64,000 nt of DNA from Dehalococcoidia bacterium. Its GTDB lineage: Bacteria > Chloroflexota > Dehalococcoidia > UBA6926. The DNA is taken from positions 1,127,327 through 1,191,326 of the forward strand of contig OZ242019.1 in the NCBI GenBank assembly GCA_965204885.1, read 5' to 3'. Shown one piece after another: positions 2,020-47,400 of the stretch. Position 1 is the first letter of the stretch, and every line of letters begins with the position of its first letter. The position numbers and the translations under genes are program-made. The notes below the pieces were generated by a model, which did not search any database, had not been told where the DNA came from, and worked only from the letters and a program-made list of their open reading frames with translations.

Positions 2020-3153
2020 ATGGCAAACAGGTTACATACACCGCTGTGCGACATGCTCGGCATGGAATACCCGATACTCCTGGCGGGCATGGCCGTGGGC
2101 GGCAGCCAGGATCTTGCGCCAACTCCCGTCGAGATGGTCGCCGCGATCAGCAACGCGGGGGCGCTCGGCGTGCTCGGCGACAATTTCCGCAATTTGGATG
2201 AGATGGACGAGGGCATCCGGCGACTTCAGTCGCTCGTGGGCGACAAGCCGTACGGCGTGGACTTCCTCGTCCCCGCCACCCGCGCCGAAGTGACCGCCAC
2301 GAGCAACAGGGAACTGTATGCGCAGGTTGCGCCGCAGTACCCGCAGCATGTCGCGCTCGTGCAGGAACTCATCGAGGAATACGGGTTCGAGGCTGAGGAA
2401 GTCTCGGAGCAGCCGCCGATGTCCACTGAGCTGCTGCGCAAGAAGATCGAGATTGTGCTGGACAACAAGGTGCCGCTGTTCGCGGCGGCGACGGGCGAGC
2501 CGCCGGAGTGGTTCACCCAGCAGGGCCATGCGCAGGGCATGAAGTTCATCGGCATGACCGGCGCGGTGCGCCACGCACAGCGCCAGGTGGCCGCGGATGT
2601 GGACATCATCACGGCGCAGGGCACGGAGGCGGGCGGTCATACGGGCAACATCTCAACGTTCGTGCTCGTTCCGCAGATCGTCGATGAGGTCTCGCCGCGA
2701 CCGGTTCTTGCCGCGGGAGGCATCGGCACCGGTCGTCATGTTGCCGCGGCGCTCGCGCTCGGCGCGCAGGGGGTGTGGGTCGGCACGGCGTTCCTGGTGG
2801 CGGAGGAGAACAACATCCCCGACGCGCACAAGGACCAGATTCTCGGCGCACGCTCCGATGAGTTCACGACGAGCAAGTTCTCGTCCGGCAAGCAGCAGCG
2901 GGCGTATCAGAACGCCGTGAAGCTGAAGTGGGCGGCCTCCGGTTTGGAGGCGCTGCCGATGCCGTTGCAGGGCCTGATCCAGGAGCCGTTCACGAAAGCG
3001 GCGCGCAAGGCGGGCAGGCTTGATCTGATCGGCAACCCGTCCGGCCAGATCGGCGGGATGCTCAAGGAGCGCAAGCCGGCTCGGACGATCCTCATGGACA
3101 TGGTCAACCAGGCAGAGGAGACCATCGAGCAACTGCAGGGGAACCTGCGGTAG
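2020..3153 (+). CDS. nitronate monooxygenase family protein (tandem paralog)
   Basis: Same architecture and motifs as the upstream gene (GTEAGGHTGN, LAAGGIGTGR); roughly 50% identity by eye. Confidence 0.8.
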   Translation: MANRLHTPLCDMLGMEYPILLAGMAVGGSQDLAPTPVEMVAAISNAGALGVLGDNFRNLDEMDEGIRRLQSLVGDKPYGVDFLVPATRAEVTATSNRELYAQVAPQYPQHVALVQELIEEYGFEAEEVSEQPPMSTELLRKKIEIVLDNKVPLFAAATGEPPEWFTQQGHAQGMKFIGMTGAVRHAQRQVAADVDIITAQGTEAGGHTGNISTFVLVPQIVDEVSPRPVLAAGGIGTGRHVAAALALGAQGVWVGTAFLVAEENNIPDAHKDQILGARSDEFTTSKFSSGKQQRAYQNAVKLKWAASGLEALPMPLQGLIQEPFTKAARKAGRLDLIGNPSGQIGGMLKERKPARTILMDMVNQAEETIEQLQGNLR

Positions 3154-3177
3154 ATACCGGTTCGATTCCGACTTGGA

Positions 3178-3226
3178 AGAAAGCCCCCGCCACGCTCAGG
3201 CGCGGCGGGGGGCTTTCTTATTTTGC
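3178..3226 (+). terminator. Rho-independent terminator
   Basis: aaagcccccgcc...ggcggggggcttt stem followed by cttatttt, 25 nt after the stop. Confidence 0.5.
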
Positions 3227-3314
3227 GAGTCGTGCCTCTTTGGCTAGAGCTTGACAGGCTCCCAGTTTTGAAGATAATAAGTGTACAGAGTAACAGTGTA
3301 AGGAGGCTGGAGTT

Positions 3315-4013
3315 ATGGTACCGGTTGTGAGGATAAGCGAGGAGTCTTATGAGCGGCTTAAGAGTTGGGCGGAACCGCTTGAAGACACGGCAGAGGATGC
3401 GCTACGCAAGGTTTTGGACGCTGCTGACCAGCAACGGACTGGGCAAGAGCACCAGGAAGATGTCGTCCATGATGTGTTGGTCGCGTACGCTCCCGAAGTG
3501 AAAGCGGTCGCTGATGTCAAAACGGAAAGCAATTCGAATCCGGCTGCAATTACACCTGACAATTCGGCTGGAACCGCCGGACGGATGTATGTGTCCTTGC
3601 CGGATGAATTCAAATCTCTGGCTAAGGGTCAAGGTAGAATGAGGGGCCGGATTGCTCGCAAAGCCTATCTCGAGAGAATCGGCGTGCCGGCTATTCGGCC
3701 AGGTCAGTGGGTGCGAACCACGAATGGGCAGATGCAATATCTTGGCTATTCATCACAGAACAGCCCCGACAACTGGTTTTTTGGAGCGGACGAAGATCTG
3801 GTAGAAAGGTACCTCGCGGATAACACCCTAGCGGCCTTTGTATTCCTGTGTGGCCTGTCGGAAGACATGATTATTGCTGTACCTTTGGGTATCTCTCAGT
3901 TAGAGCAATTAATCCAGTTGGGGATCTTTTCCAAGAGCGGTGGTCAACTCAAGTTCAATATTCGTAGAGAAGCTGGCGATGTCTTCTACTTGGATGGAAG
4001 GCTGATTGAATAA
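3315..4013 (+). CDS. hypothetical protein with N-terminal ribbon-helix-helix-like segment
   Basis: Good SD (taaggaggctggagttATG); N-terminus VVRISEESYERLKSWAEPL-EDTAEDALRKVL resembles a beta-alpha-alpha RHH/Arc fold; C-terminal ~150 aa unrecognised; AT-richer than flanks. Confidence 0.5.
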   Translation: MVPVVRISEESYERLKSWAEPLEDTAEDALRKVLDAADQQRTGQEHQEDVVHDVLVAYAPEVKAVADVKTESNSNPAAITPDNSAGTAGRMYVSLPDEFKSLAKGQGRMRGRIARKAYLERIGVPAIRPGQWVRTTNGQMQYLGYSSQNSPDNWFFGADEDLVERYLADNTLAAFVFLCGLSEDMIIAVPLGISQLEQLIQLGIFSKSGGQLKFNIRREAGDVFYLDGRLIE

Positions 4014-4093
4014 TGGACGTTCTGCACCAACTCAATTGGATTGCTTTCCAGTGTTAGCCCCAACGGTTTGGTGAGGTTCGAAAAGGAGACTAA

Positions 4094-4411
4094 GTGACTA
4101 ATACTCAGCATGCTGAGCGTGTCCGGCAATCGCCGAGGCTTTCTGTCCATGCCTTGCGACGCTGCCAGCAAAGAGGAATCTCACAAGAGGTCGTGCTGTT
4201 GCTCGTGAAATATGGTGCGAAACACCGAAGCGGGGACGCCTACAGTTACAACGCTACGTCAAGAACCCATCAGCTTGCGCGTGCAGAGATCGGGCCTGAC
4301 CAACACGCCAGAATTTCAAGAGCCCTAAGTCAGTGCTACGTCATAGTCTCGTCTGACGGTTCAGTTGTGGAGACGGCCGCATGGCGTGAGCGTCATTGGA
4401 GGCGACGCTAA
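4094..4411 (+). CDS. DUF4258 domain-containing protein (putative toxin-like small protein)
   Basis: LSVHALRRCQQRGISQEVVLLLVKYG matches the DUF4258 signature region; SD aaaaggagactaagtg upstream. Confidence 0.55.
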   Translation: MTNTQHAERVRQSPRLSVHALRRCQQRGISQEVVLLLVKYGAKHRSGDAYSYNATSRTHQLARAEIGPDQHARISRALSQCYVIVSSDGSVVETAAWRERHWRRR

Positions 4412-4531
4412 CTGGCGATTGCGCCTCGTTGCCAAGTCGTTGTCAGAGGCGAAATGGCCCGGTGTCGTGTCTTAGGCGCTCGTTTGGAACGTCGACGACT
4501 AGCTCCAACTGTTACGGGTTTACAGCTCGTC

Positions 4532-5047
4532 CTACATCCGCTCTAGGCCGAGGGTGATTTTTTCGCGGGGGGTGAGGTCTGTTGAGGCGTCGTTGGGGGT
4601 GCGCGGCGGGGCGCCGGCAGGGATGCCCGACGATTCCGATGGATTCCGGCTGTCGCCGGAATGAGGGGAGGGGGTGGACTCCATTCCTTCCAAAAGACGA
4701 TTTCGCACCTGCTCGACGACGCCCTTTGCCTTTGCCAGCGAGGATTCCAGTTCCTCCGCTGTTGCTCCACTCACCAGGTCGCCGGGCACCTCGGGCGCGG
4801 CGTCCAACAATGCGAGTCGGTAACGTGAGACCGTCGTCGAGAGTTCTCGCTCCAGCGTGATTATGTGCTCTTCAAGAGATGCAACACGCTCGTCACGCTC
4901 TGCCAGTTCTGCCTGCATTGTCTCGGTGGTTGGCTGCTCATTTGCCGGTGTCTCATCGCCGATCTCGACGTTGTCGGTATCCTCAACGGCTGTGGCCTGT
5001 TCGTGCTCTTCGGCGGCGGCGTTTGTCTCATGGTCATGCGTCGTCAT
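4532..5047 (-). CDS. hypothetical acidic protein
   Basis: ORF on minus strand; start taken at MTTHDHET (SD ggggga 7 nt upstream); Glu/Asp-rich N-terminus and a predicted coiled coil; no known domain. Confidence 0.4.
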   Translation of the reverse strand: MTTHDHETNAAAEEHEQATAVEDTDNVEIGDETPANEQPTTETMQAELAERDERVASLEEHIITLERELSTTVSRYRLALLDAAPEVPGDLVSGATAEELESSLAKAKGVVEQVRNRLLEGMESTPSPHSGDSRNPSESSGIPAGAPPRTPNDASTDLTPREKITLGLERM

Positions 5048-5139
5048 TACAGGTTCCCCCATTCGGTCTTGTGATTGGTGTCCGTTGGGGTTGTAGCGCG
5101 TATGGGACGCATGGCGCAAATGGATGTGGCACATGGCTC

Positions 5140-5215
5140 ACCCTTCGACAGGCTCAGGGTGACCGGAGGTGGAGGGGCTCAGGGTTCTGGATTCCCGCGA
5201 AAGCGGGAATGACGT
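5140..5215. repeat. dispersed repeat family copy (module cccttcgacaggctcagggtga + hairpin attcccgcgaaagcgggaatgac)
   Basis: The same motifs recur at 44862-44890 and 47272-47400; related hairpin at 37839-37943. Confidence 0.55.
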
Positions 5216-5222
5216 AACTGAT

Positions 5223-8882: not shown

Positions 8883-10838
8883 TCAAGAGGCTGCGTCCAA
8901 GGTTTCGCCAAGTATTTCTTTCAGTACATACCGTTTGAATGCGTCAACACTTGTGAAGCAGCGGTAACCGGCGCTTGCGCCAACAGAGAGTGTCTCAATC
9001 CCTTCATCAAGCAGAACCGCAACAGGTTGGCTCAAGCCCTCTTGTAGGCCATTTGGCCATGCCAAATCGAATATCGCTAGTGGAGAGTCGTTTTCGGGGT
9101 CAGTGTAATCAAATCCCATTTCGCCATGTGCGAGCCCGTGAGATTCCACCCAGTCATTGAGGTTCACTAGCTCAGCCTCCTCGTCCGAGCTAGCAATCTC
9201 GCCCGGAACCTCAATCGGTTGGCTGGCCGACGGTTCCTGCGTTACCGGCGATGGCGTTGGCTCCGAACTCTCGGTGAGAGTGCTCATCAACTTATTAGTC
9301 TGGGCGGCCATTAGTTGTGCCCGCTCCTCGAGAAAGCCAGGATAATTGTCTAGGTGCCAAAGATTACGATTCGTAGGAATCCACTGTGATTCGAGTGCGC
9401 CGGGATGATTAGCGGCAACTTCTTCGAGATACTCCTGAGGATTACGATTGCTAATCTGCAGATTGCTGTCCTTTGTCAGGAAACAAAGATTGCCCAACGC
9501 ATTGACTTGGGCGCGCGAGTAACCGTGCTTATAGAGCAAGGATTTAGGAAATATGTGATGAACCTCAAGCTGATTCATTTTCCCAACATTGCCTTGCTTG
9601 AGAGGCAAACCGGTTCCCAAATCTCTACTGTCGGACATCCTCGTGAGCATATATAGAACGGGGTAAAACCTTGCGCCGAGCCCCAGACCTTCTGAAAAGT
9701 GCTGGGATTCGACTGTTGGACGATTCCAAATCCTGACACGTTCCACGAGTGACTCAAGCGGCGATTTGGTGTCATTGTCGAGTGTTGCCAGATCCTGCTC
9801 AAGCGATGTTTCTGTGTTGCCAGAGTACCGGCCCCACATACCAGCTTGGGCATAGTAGTAGAGCAGATTTCCTTGTTCGAGGGCATCCGGCGATTTATTG
9901 TATCGATCATAGAACCGTGCCATGACTGGCACTGCGTGGCGGGCAAAAAATACTCTGTCGTGATCCAGACCCAAGCGGCCATCAATCAATGCAATGATGG
10001 CATCAATTGACCTTACGGCTCTGCCAAGCCCATCCTTCACTTCTTCGGAAGACTTTTCGCTTAAATATCTGAAATCGGCTCGCCCGGTAAGGATGGAGTT
10101 GATCGACCGAAGAAGCCATACAAGGTCGAAATAGTAGCCTTTTTTATTCCACTCATCCAGTGCGTCCTTCATTCTTTCTCTAGCCTCGGGCCAACCGGCG
10201 CATATCTTCGCTAGTGCCAGATCGCCTTTAGAGAGCTTGGTGCCACCACTGTTCACGCGGTTGAAAATATCGACCACAATATCAAGATCAAGATCTTTGC
10301 TCGCCATTATCTCTATTGGCAACTCGACCTCCCGAATCCCCAAGAGGCGACTCAGACGGCCATAGATTTCAGATGTCCGAAGAGTGTCGTTCTCCGGTAA
10401 GTCAACGTGGTCGAGGTAGCTAGACCCTGCACGCATAACGTCCGTGACGTTTACCCAGAGCGGATCGTCGCGCATTCTTATCGCTTGATAAAACTCGAAC
10501 CTCTCGGTACCAACGTGGAACATTAAACCAGTGAATGTTCTTTCATCGCCGTCAAAGAATCCAGGAGGTCCTCCCCTGACAACGCCATACAATGTCGTGA
10601 CTCGCTGCTGACCATCCAGCAACAACTGCACGACGCCCGGCGGGGGTGTATTTGAGCCTCGAAAGTCCGCAGTACTTGCGGATGTCTCCCAAATGAGCAA
10701 GCCTCCCACGGGATGCTTGCGATACAGTGAATCGAACAGACTTCTAACTTGTTCTCTGTTCCATACGTAACTTCGCTGAAACTTTGGCAGACTTATTTGC
10801 CCGCTGTCGACTCGGTCAAGGATTGTGGATATCTGCAC
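8883..10838 (-). CDS. GmrSD-family type IV restriction endonuclease (DUF262 + DUF1524) with extra C-terminal domain
   Basis: N-terminal LPKFQRSYVW...LLDGQQRVTTL (DUF262/ParB-like) and EVHHIFPKS (DUF1524 His-Me finger); P/S/E-rich linker then ~100 aa tail with FDLAWPNG...VAVLLDEG; AT-rich. Confidence 0.8.
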   Translation of the reverse strand: MQISTILDRVDSGQISLPKFQRSYVWNREQVRSLFDSLYRKHPVGGLLIWETSASTADFRGSNTPPPGVVQLLLDGQQRVTTLYGVVRGGPPGFFDGDERTFTGLMFHVGTERFEFYQAIRMRDDPLWVNVTDVMRAGSSYLDHVDLPENDTLRTSEIYGRLSRLLGIREVELPIEIMASKDLDLDIVVDIFNRVNSGGTKLSKGDLALAKICAGWPEARERMKDALDEWNKKGYYFDLVWLLRSINSILTGRADFRYLSEKSSEEVKDGLGRAVRSIDAIIALIDGRLGLDHDRVFFARHAVPVMARFYDRYNKSPDALEQGNLLYYYAQAGMWGRYSGNTETSLEQDLATLDNDTKSPLESLVERVRIWNRPTVESQHFSEGLGLGARFYPVLYMLTRMSDSRDLGTGLPLKQGNVGKMNQLEVHHIFPKSLLYKHGYSRAQVNALGNLCFLTKDSNLQISNRNPQEYLEEVAANHPGALESQWIPTNRNLWHLDNYPGFLEERAQLMAAQTNKLMSTLTESSEPTPSPVTQEPSASQPIEVPGEIASSDEEAELVNLNDWVESHGLAHGEMGFDYTDPENDSPLAIFDLAWPNGLQEGLSQPVAVLLDEGIETLSVGASAGYRCFTSVDAFKRYVLKEILGETLDAAS

Positions 10839-29554: not shown

Positions 29555-30745
29555 ATGGATGGGGCCCGGGGAATCAAGCCAATGGTTGATGGAAAAGCGC
29601 GTGGAATTTTACGTGTACTGCTCATCGCCATGTCCGTCTTTGTGATGGCCTTCATCGCCTGCGGGGAGCCGCTCCCCACTTTCACACCCGTCGCCACTCC
29701 CACTGAAACCCCCGGCCCATCGCCAACACCGTCCCCGACAGAAACAGCCACCCCATCCCCCACCCGCACCGCCGTACCGACAGCCACGCAAGTGCCACCT
29801 CCGCCCACACCGACGGGAACACCCGTACCCACACCGACGCTGGTTCCATTCAATGACAGGGCGGCGCTAGAAGCACTCTACCATGCGACCGACGGCGACA
29901 ATTGGGTCCGCAATGACAACTGGTTAACTGATGCTCCTCTTGGTGAATGGTACGGCGTGACGACCAATGAGGAGGGGCGGGCTACCCACTTGGTTCTCCA
30001 TGAGAACCTGCTTAGCGGAGAGATACCGGTGGAACTTGGCTTATTGGCAGAACTCAGAAGATTGTCGTTCAACGCGAATACGTTGGGTGGAGAGATACCG
30101 GCGGAACTCGGCAATCTGTCTAACCTTGAAATTTTAAATCTCAGCATCAACAAGTTGAGTGGAGGGATTTCACCGGAACTGGGTGATCTTACGTCCGTTA
30201 GGTGGTTGACACTTGCGAATAACGAACTAAGTGGAGGGATTCCAGCCGACTTTGGCAACCTATCCAGCCTTGAAGGATTGGATCTCGCTTACAACCTGTT
30301 GAGCGACGAGATTCCAGCCGAACTGGGTAAACTGTCCAACCTAGAATACTTGCGGCTAAGCTTCAATCAATTGAGCGGTAATATACCACCAGAAATGGGC
30401 AATTTGTCCAACCTTGAAAATGTCCAGATCAGGGGCAACCAATTGAGCGGCGCTATTCCTGCAGAACTTGGCAACCTGTCCAATCTTAAGTCTCTACATC
30501 TCCCACAAAATGATTTGAGTGGTGAGATACCGCCGGAACTGGGTAGGTTGCCCACCCTTGAAAGTTTACATCTCTATGATAACCGGCTCAGTGGCATGAT
30601 ACCGCCGGAACTGGGTGATTTGACGTTGAAAGGGATATCCCTCTGGGGCAATCGGCTAGTGGGATGTATTCCCGCTGACTTGCGAGGCGTCCCGTCCAAC
30701 GATTTTGAGGCGCTTCAGCTACCATTCTGTCAAGATGCCCAGTGA
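29555..30745 (+). CDS. leucine-rich-repeat lipoprotein with plant-type 24-residue LRRs
   Basis: Lipobox FIAC; Pro/Thr-rich linker; about 10 repeats of LxxLxxLxLxxNxLSGxIPxELGN; 72-bp periodicity visible in the DNA. Confidence 0.75.
   Translation: MDGARGIKPMVDGKARGILRVLLIAMSVFVMAFIACGEPLPTFTPVATPTETPGPSPTPSPTETATPSPTRTAVPTATQVPPPPTPTGTPVPTPTLVPFNDRAALEALYHATDGDNWVRNDNWLTDAPLGEWYGVTTNEEGRATHLVLHENLLSGEIPVELGLLAELRRLSFNANTLGGEIPAELGNLSNLEILNLSINKLSGGISPELGDLTSVRWLTLANNELSGGIPADFGNLSSLEGLDLAYNLLSDEIPAELGKLSNLEYLRLSFNQLSGNIPPEMGNLSNLENVQIRGNQLSGAIPAELGNLSNLKSLHLPQNDLSGEIPPELGRLPTLESLHLYDNRLSGMIPPELGDLTLKGISLWGNRLVGCIPADLRGVPSNDFEALQLPFCQDAQ
29990..30700 (+). repeat. 72-bp tandem coding repeats (LRR units) inside the LRR gene
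   Basis: Recurring ...ctgtccaaccttgaa...caattgagcgg...ataccgccggaactgggt... units. Confidence 0.6.
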
Positions 30746-47271: not shown

Positions 47272-47400
47272 GAGCAGAACACGTCATTCCCGCTCGGCCT
47301 GCTTATCACCGCTTTAGATTCCTCGACTGCGCTCGGAATGACAGTGAGTATTCTACCCTTCGACAGGCTCAGGGTGAGCGGGTGTGGGCGCGAGCCGAGA
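47272..47400. repeat. dispersed repeat copy (gtcattcccgctcgg...cgctcggaatgac + cccttcgacaggctcagggtgagcgg)
   Basis: Shares both modules with 5140-5215 and the ctttagattc core with 37839-37943. Confidence 0.55.

Follow-up and report, generated by a model that had tools for sequence, protein, structure and literature searches.

The stretch of 64,000 nucleotides analysed here, referred to as the window, belongs to contig OZ242019.1 of a Dehalococcoidia bacterium (metagenome-assembled genome, assembly GCA_965204885.1, positions 1,127,327 to 1,191,326 of the forward strand) and carries, at positions 3154-5220, a gene for a protein of 232 amino acids (aa), a co-directional gene for a 105-aa protein and a convergent open reading frame (ORF) for an acidic coiled-coil protein of 200 aa. 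All three ORFs lie where a first-pass annotation, made from the letters of the window, had placed them; that annotation took the first two for an atypical toxin-antitoxin (TA) or abortive-infection-like module within an AT-rich islet. Its domain calls proved largely right and its system call did not: by comparison with related genomes, the 232-aa and 105-aa genes appear to be chance neighbours in a slot where genes are swapped, not a conserved toxin-antitoxin pair. The features of the two genes and of the slot are as follows.

3251-3278, + strand: sigma-70-like promoter of the 232-aa gene (TTGACA at 3251-3256, 16-nt spacer, GATAAT at 3273-3278)
3282-3302, + strand: operator-like GT(A/T)ACA repeats, TGTACAgaGTAACAgtGTAAG, between the -10 box and the ribosome-binding site
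3315-4013, + strand: 232-aa gene, with ATG start and AGGAGG at 3301-3306
3315-3437, + strand: N-terminal module (residues 1-41) of VapB/SepA type, a putative DNA-binding/dimerisation domain
3438-3584, + strand: variable linker (residues 42-90), predicted to be disordered
3585-4010, + strand: C-terminal domain (residues 91-232), of an undescribed family
4094-4411, + strand: 105-aa gene, with a GTG start directly 3' of an in-frame TAA and AAGGAG at 4083-4088, 5 nt upstream
4452-4511, - strand: relic (20 codons) of a retropepsin-like aspartyl-protease gene

Conservation of the 232-aa gene and exchange of its neighbour

The 232-aa protein has 12 full-length homologs, and the gene order of the window was compared with that of ten other loci encoding it (11 in total). 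A gene of the nitronate monooxygenase (NMO) family precedes the 232-aa gene in nine of the ten (all but L007), and contigs that reach further have two such genes in tandem; beyond a variable slot, the acidic gene and a Metallophos gene (both on the - strand), S20 and RelA follow wherever the contig extends, with a different downstream arrangement in L005. The slot itself holds an XRE-type helix-turn-helix (XRE-HTH) gene in seven of the 11 loci (L002, where it is truncated, L005, L006, L008, L010, L016 and L035), is empty in two (L003/L004 and L007), and holds the 105-aa gene in the window and L001 only. The first-pass annotation had named failure of the pair to co-occur in other genomes as evidence that would speak against a two-gene module; the pair recurs in one of the ten other loci, next to seven with an XRE-HTH gene and two with nothing, so that co-occurrence is essentially absent and the proposed module is not upheld. 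Adjacency together with toxin-like and antitoxin-like domains is insufficient to define a TA pair, and here it was the comparison of sister genomes that revealed the swapping slot.

The XRE-HTH protein of the slot is ~150 aa long, with a weakly DUF2442-like N-terminus; the idea that it and the 105-aa protein are divergent homologs was rejected, since the two have no similarity by tblastn, and a tblastn search of the window found no relic of an HTH gene. A retropepsin-like gene also lies in the slot of L001, L002 and L008, and the intact protein falls in a Pfam family: the gene is intact in L002 and L008, and all 119 residues align in L001 (tblastn), where the called gene is 87 aa. The relic at 4452-4511 of the window, a 21-aa ORF, is 75% identical to residues 98-117 of the L008 protein (tblastn).

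An exchange of partner goes with no change in the 232-aa protein itself: L001, with the 105-aa gene as partner, and L035, with the HTH gene, carry alleles 91% identical to each other, and the allele of the window shares 78% identity with either. Ratios of nonsynonymous to synonymous divergence (dN/dS) of 0.09-0.16 indicate purifying selection on the 232-aa gene with either partner or none. Low G+C (53-55%) is common to all homologs and is thus an old property of the gene; recent horizontal insertion, as an explanation of this composition, was rejected because all homologs are low in G+C at the same syntenic site. The gene has diverged faster than its neighbour: against L003, protein identity is 65% for the 232-aa gene versus 97.6% for the adjacent NMO paralog (NMO2, 2020-3153), with synonymous divergence (dS) of 2.56 versus 0.40, and against L035 dS is 1.14 versus 0.57. 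This gap in dS suggests allele exchange or a very different codon constraint, and the combination of fast divergence with low G+C is compatible with a conflict-type or recombining locus as well as with weak codon adaptation. On these comparisons the 232-aa gene is to be regarded as a long-resident, syntenic gene of Dehalococcoidia that evolves fast and has a predicted sigma-70-like promoter of its own.

Promoter and operator-like repeats

The predicted promoter of the 232-aa gene agrees with the consensus at 11 of 12 positions, and its -35 box TTGACA is found in nine of the 11 homologous loci, including L007, with one mismatch each in L002 and L008. In an alignment of the upstream DNA of the 11 loci, which has otherwise diverged, the only conserved columns are the -35 box and the block of GT(A/T)ACA repeats; GTWACA/TGTWAC matches 24 times in 550 nt of proximal upstream DNA against 0.18 expected from background, an excess that shared ancestry inflates. 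The repeats occur in all 11 loci, including those without an HTH gene and L007, which has a different genomic context, so the likeliest binder of the repeats would be the 232-aa protein itself. Conservation of the promoter together with the repeats thus suggests autoregulation of the 232-aa gene. The 105-aa gene lies on the same strand after a gap of 80 bp, with its own ribosome-binding site and no terminator-like site in between, and is for these reasons probably co-transcribed from the promoter of the 232-aa gene.

The N-terminal module of the 232-aa protein

No family of Pfam, NCBIfam, PHROGs or PADLOC spans the whole 232-aa protein. PHROGs gave no significant match and PADLOC no match at all for the 232-aa, 105-aa and acidic proteins, and the suggestion of an abortive-infection-like module, for which no PADLOC defence model matches, is accordingly unsupported. 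Profile searches of the PDB with the 232-aa family, its N-terminal module and the 105-aa family returned chance hits only (E >= 0.46).

The N-terminal module is highly conserved across the alignment of 232-aa homologs and is matched by NCBIfam NF047386 ('T4SS effector SepA family') with E = 4e-8, at 33.2 bits against a cut-off of 110 and over profile positions 2-47 of 182 only. A scan of species-representative genomes found the module in many phyla at 55-69% identity over ~40-45 residues; in these it is joined either to a short tail or to an Mrr_N winged helix followed by the same tail. At four loci (L019, L020, L026 and L032, at ~4001-5010) from Thermodesulfobacteriota, Latescibacterota, Binatia and Pseudomonadales, a gene for an N-module protein (194-197 aa with Mrr_N, 88-102 aa without) has a PIN/VapC gene directly after it, the two overlapping by 4 bp, which argues that the module of the 232-aa protein is likewise a VapB-like N-terminal module of antitoxin type. 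The likeness to VapB-like antitoxins and NF047386 is confined to the first ~41 residues (PVxRISxExxxRLKxWAEPLxDTAxxAxxKxLDAA, 55-69% identical): the 232-aa protein has neither the Mrr_N winged helix, which is matched in the L024 and L026 proteins and not in that of the window, nor the C-terminal tail (FxxHLLAxPxVGxDADFxR...), carries an unrelated domain of ~140 aa and is not followed by a PIN gene. Against IMG/VR, the 232-aa family gave one weak match (L036, 29% identity), which covers the N-terminal module only.

The first-pass annotation had described the N-terminus as an antitoxin-like ribbon-helix-helix motif. Its antitoxin likeness is supported by homology to the N-termini of PIN-gene partners, but the ribbon-helix-helix was not confirmed by any hidden Markov model (HMM): in profile searches of family members, no ribbon-helix-helix family matched the module at E <= 0.01, and the faint matches were to RHH_10 (E = 0.085 in one of 12), MatP_C (0.033 in one of 17) and DUF7557 (best 0.002, 11 of 17 members). 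From the sequence pattern, a ribbon-helix-helix nature is plausible. Since members of the NF047386 'SepA family' are upstream partners of PIN toxin genes in several phyla, the family is possibly misnamed and may consist largely of VapB-like antitoxins rather than secretion effectors.

The linker and C-terminal domain of the 232-aa protein

The linker contains no conserved column, differs in length among homologs and is modelled with low pLDDT (25-40). The C-terminal domain of ~140 residues matches nothing in Pfam, NCBIfam, PHROGs or PADLOC, in agreement with the first-pass annotation, to which the ~150-aa remainder of the protein was unrecognisable. A metagenome scan recovered five distant relatives of the domain, 30-38% identical and with a different N-terminus, and tblastn found no homologs in phage and plasmid collections. 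Twelve residues are invariant across both subfamilies of the domain: R115, Y118, T135, G138, W154, F155, G157, L178, C179, Q211, K213 and F214.

The predicted fold of the domain is tentatively restriction-endonuclease-like, without the canonical catalytic motif; the model is of medium confidence and its Foldseek matches are not significant. Compared with proteins of the PD-(D/E)xK fold (NhoI, SwaI, Hjc, DpnI and PvuII), the domain is 4-13% identical with no sequence-profile match, and differs in that QxK takes the position of (D/E)xK. The residues invariant across the two subfamilies include no acidic one, so a canonical nuclease active site is not supported. The distant relatives in L039 and L040 are each followed immediately by a complete HicB-HicA pair (L039 2285-2733, L040 3372-3814), from which it appears that small genes of toxin-antitoxin type repeatedly land next to this domain family. 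Altogether the family comprises ~17 sequences, apparently from Dehalococcoidia and similar metagenomic contigs only, and would be an undescribed combination of an antitoxin-type N-terminal module with a restriction-endonuclease-like domain that has no catalytic residues, under a clear candidate operator.

The 105-aa protein

The assignment of the 105-aa protein to DUF4258 in the first-pass annotation falls short when the protein is searched alone with the Pfam HMM (PF14076; 19.8 bits where the cut-off is 25, with E = 9.7e-4 and a match to positions 1-27 of the 71 in the profile only), but it is supported by the relatives of the protein and by its predicted fold. An exhaustive phmmer search found 103 homologs of 85-130 aa at E <= 1e-3; DUF4258 is matched by 39 of the 60 relatives scanned (best E = 9e-7), and some relatives have a precomputed PF14076 hit or bear the source name 'DUF4258 domain-containing protein'. 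The predicted structure (pLDDT 87.5) matches ParE, RelE, colicin E5, YoeB, BrnT and CdiA-CT. H19, R23 and R27 are invariant or nearly so in alignments of 60 and 64 sequences, T94 is also invariant in the family, and all four are kept in the protein of the window.

The conserved H and R residues agree with the 'H, [KR]' signature of Ntox49 (PMC3482391). DUF4258 has been classed within the RelE/ParE superfamily, with its target listed as unknown and with an antitoxin-then-toxin gene order tabulated for it (PMC11980606), and has been placed in a colicin-like branch that overlaps Ntox49 (bioRxiv 10.64898/2026.08.28.747851). By its homologs, modelled fold and conserved residues, the 105-aa protein is thus predicted to be a DUF4258/Ntox49-class protein of the BECR (Barnase-EndoU-ColicinE5/D-RelE) fold, which bears out the toxin-like character proposed for it, and it is most likely an RNase with H19, R23 and R27 as candidate catalytic residues. 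It shares with DUF4258/Ntox49 proteins a similar size (~90-110 aa) and the motif HAxxRxQQRGI, and differs from them in lying below the Pfam gathering threshold, with 27 of 71 profile positions matched, and in belonging to a peripheral subfamily of ~100 representatives at 50% identity whose sampled members are solitary, with neither an MqsA-like nor another partner.

The only close ortholog is that of L001, which is 72% identical and was called as a 105-aa gene. The two differ with dN/dS of 0.13 at dS of 1.1 over 105 codons, which indicates that the gene is functional and no relic. The exact product is absent from ~15 billion called proteins, which do include the 232-aa and 171-aa products encoded on this contig; the gene was probably left uncalled in the source annotation, or called with a different start. 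In all three genomic contexts sampled for other relatives (L012, L013 and L014/L015) the neighbours are unrelated, and no small adjacent ORF was found there that could be a candidate antitoxin. A small unannotated antitoxin ORF beside the 105-aa gene or its relatives was rejected, no conserved candidate having been found. In L013 (3383-6345), the relative P0037 lies directly upstream of a 1138-aa protein that combines RNase_H_2 with an AAA_11/AAA_12 helicase and may be a defence-type neighbour.

Interpretation of the locus

We interpret the region, with about an even chance of being right, as a composite of a self-regulated lineage-specific gene, a cassette slot and an orphan homolog of BECR RNase toxins, with no dedicated two-gene TA module. 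The steps proposed are that the 232-aa protein would dimerise through its N-terminal module and bind the GT(A/T)ACA repeats, which overlap the predicted transcription start; that this binding would repress its own transcript; that the slot downstream undergoes gene turnover, being filled usually by an XRE-HTH gene and sometimes by a retropepsin-like gene in addition; that in the window and L001 the 105-aa gene has taken the place of the HTH gene, the window keeping of the retropepsin-like gene only the 20-codon relic; and that transcriptional control by the 232-aa protein would fix the dose of the 105-aa protein, in place of a co-evolved antitoxin acting through protein-protein contact.

Several observations weigh against this composite. 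A BECR toxin homolog with intact candidate catalytic residues and no neutraliser is unusual; no further ORF that might be an antitoxin lies in the window, while the protein encoded upstream carries a module of antitoxin type; the two genes stand in the antitoxin-then-toxin order reported for DUF4258 (PMC11980606); divergence between the window and L001 is similar for both genes (dS 1.10 for the 105-aa gene, 1.05 for the 232-aa gene), so that their association is old and not a very recent accident; the structure model of the N-terminal module is of low confidence (pLDDT 35-55); and the genomic contexts sampled for relatives of the 105-aa protein number three only. A genuine atypical type II TA pair, in which the 232-aa protein is the antitoxin, its N-terminal module represses the operon and its linker or C-terminal domain neutralises the BECR RNase, would draw on the same gene order and the same want of another antitoxin candidate in the window, as well as on the co-directional genes 80 bp apart with no terminator between them, the homology of the module to the N-termini of VapB-like antitoxins, the intact toxin-like protein under selection, the retention of the pair in two lineages, with copies now diverged to dS ~1.1, and the operator-like repeats upstream; in sister genomes the same antitoxin platform would then serve another partner. 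The arrangement indeed resembles RelBE- and ParDE-type operons in its upstream N-terminal module of antitoxin type, its small downstream protein of predicted BECR fold, its short gap and the operator-like repeats at its promoter, and it departs from them in that the upstream protein, of 232 aa, has a large additional domain and is conserved whether or not the toxin-like gene is there, in that the partner varies among near-identical 232-aa alleles, and in that the pair is not conserved across genomes. We consider such a pair unlikely: it occurs in two of the 11 loci only, a 91%-identical 232-aa allele has an XRE-HTH partner and not even its linker differs in a partner-specific way, purifying selection acts on the 232-aa gene where the 105-aa gene is missing, and the relatives of the 105-aa protein are solitary in each of the three contexts. 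Their solitary state prompts one to ask how a seemingly intact BECR RNase can be tolerated with no cognate antitoxin at hand.

It is quite improbable, in our estimate, that the 232-aa protein is itself the effector, as an antitoxin-toxin fusion or as a nuclease of restriction-like or defence type that combines a DNA-binding module with a PD-(D/E)xK-type domain, to which the downstream XRE-HTH or 105-aa gene would be a regulator or accessory. Its fast evolution, low G+C and narrow distribution are often features of conflict genes, a variable slot with GmrSD, McrBC or HNH genes, depending on the genome, lies nearby, and an XRE-HTH gene adjoining a nuclease gene is reminiscent of restriction-modification controller proteins. 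An effector of this kind is at variance with the lack of an invariant acidic residue across the two subfamilies and the QxK motif in place of (D/E)xK, with the non-significant Foldseek matches, with the lack of PADLOC, Pfam and PHROG matches and of homologs in the phage and plasmid collections searched, with the absence of an adjacent methyltransferase gene, and with the persistence of the gene without an HTH partner in the window, L001 and L003, since a gene that survives loss of the HTH gene is not a toxin dependent on that partner. A low probability likewise attaches to the 232-aa protein being a new type of modular 'platform' regulator or antitoxin, which autoregulates its operon through a VapB-type DNA-binding module, exchanges the cargo carried downstream (XRE-HTH, BECR RNase or none) and uses a catalytically dead restriction-endonuclease-like C-terminal domain as a new sensor or neutraliser; if this were true, cargo would be swapped by recombination within the population, the C-terminal domain would bind, for example, nucleic acid or the cargo protein, and the locus would represent a previously undescribed cassette-swapping conflict system in Dehalococcoidia. 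It seems extremely improbable that a degenerating intergenic region has left the 105-aa ORF as a spurious reading frame or as a remnant, decaying or without function: the slot does decay in places (the retropepsin relic in the window, the truncated HTH gene in L002), the exact product is not on record among called proteins and the start codon is GTG, but selection has been maintained (dN/dS 0.13 against the L001 ortholog, at dS 1.1 over 105 codons), the family-invariant H19, R23, R27 and T94 are all kept, the fold is predicted with confidence (pLDDT 87.5), a good AAGGAG ribosome-binding site lies 5 nt before the start, and the L001 ortholog was called as a gene of 105 aa.

Composition, boundaries and neighbouring genes

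The features that flank the two genes in the region are as follows.

3177-3226, + strand: intrinsic terminator of the upstream NMO paralog (hairpin at 3177-3218 and T-tract)
4532-5134, - strand: acidic coiled-coil ORF (200 aa)
4532-5047, - strand: likely form of the acidic coiled-coil gene (171 aa)
5140-5215, + strand: REP-like dispersed repeat (palindrome TTCCCGC-GAAA-GCGGGAA)

The dip in G+C that the first-pass annotation had extended over 3154-5220 is real, with 51.5% in the 232-aa gene (54% at third codon positions, GC3) and 55.7% in the 105-aa gene, compared with 63-65% (GC3 77-86%) in the flanking genes. The acidic gene has 61% G+C, as has the window as a whole, so the AT-rich stretch spans only ~3230-4420. 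The terminator reported at the upstream boundary was recovered, with a folding energy of -42 kcal/mol (z = -5.6 versus shuffles) for the hairpin and T-tract; the hairpin was also found by a terminator scan, and a comparable one lies at the equivalent place in relatives. As for the dispersed repeat at the other boundary, its first half (5140-5172) recurs as a 91% copy at 47355-47387, against a chance expectation of 0.01 matches, and its second half (5190-5213) is unique within the window. REP-like elements also occur at L007 6757-6912, L010 7319-7981 and L016 5206-5988 and are widespread in the lineage; when read through, they yield spurious '...IPAKAG...' extensions of ORFs in these three loci.

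Terminator and repeat are descriptive bounds and not biological ones. A mobile islet delimited by them, as first proposed, is ruled out, since the 232-aa and acidic genes are syntenic core genes and the acidic gene, like the repeat, is part of the backbone conserved in the lineage. Orthologs of the acidic gene occupy the same position in L002, L003, L006, L008, L010, L016 and L035, and on this evidence it is a core syntenic gene that forms no module with the 232-aa or 105-aa gene. Its start is most likely at 5047, giving 171 aa, because the recorded form is that of 171 aa and the proteins of relatives begin with MTT... at this point; the protein has no significant family match and a faint one to a head-scaffold PHROG (E = 0.009).

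Upstream, the tandem NMO paralogs (791-1921 and 2020-3153) are 70-77% identical in DNA over long stretches, and the pair is conserved in relatives. A 651-aa GmrSD-like type IV restriction gene (8883-10838, - strand; GmrSD_N E = 4e-26, GmrSD_C weak) sits in a patch of low G+C just beyond relA. The equivalent position in relatives holds McrBC (L002), HNH_2 (L003 and L008) or a transposase (L006), and so looks like a second variable defence slot. Farther along the window, a 72-nt unit is repeated in tandem at least seven times (copies 62-72% identical) at 30011-30626, within an ORF at 29555-30745 (+ strand), which presumably encodes a repeat-domain protein.

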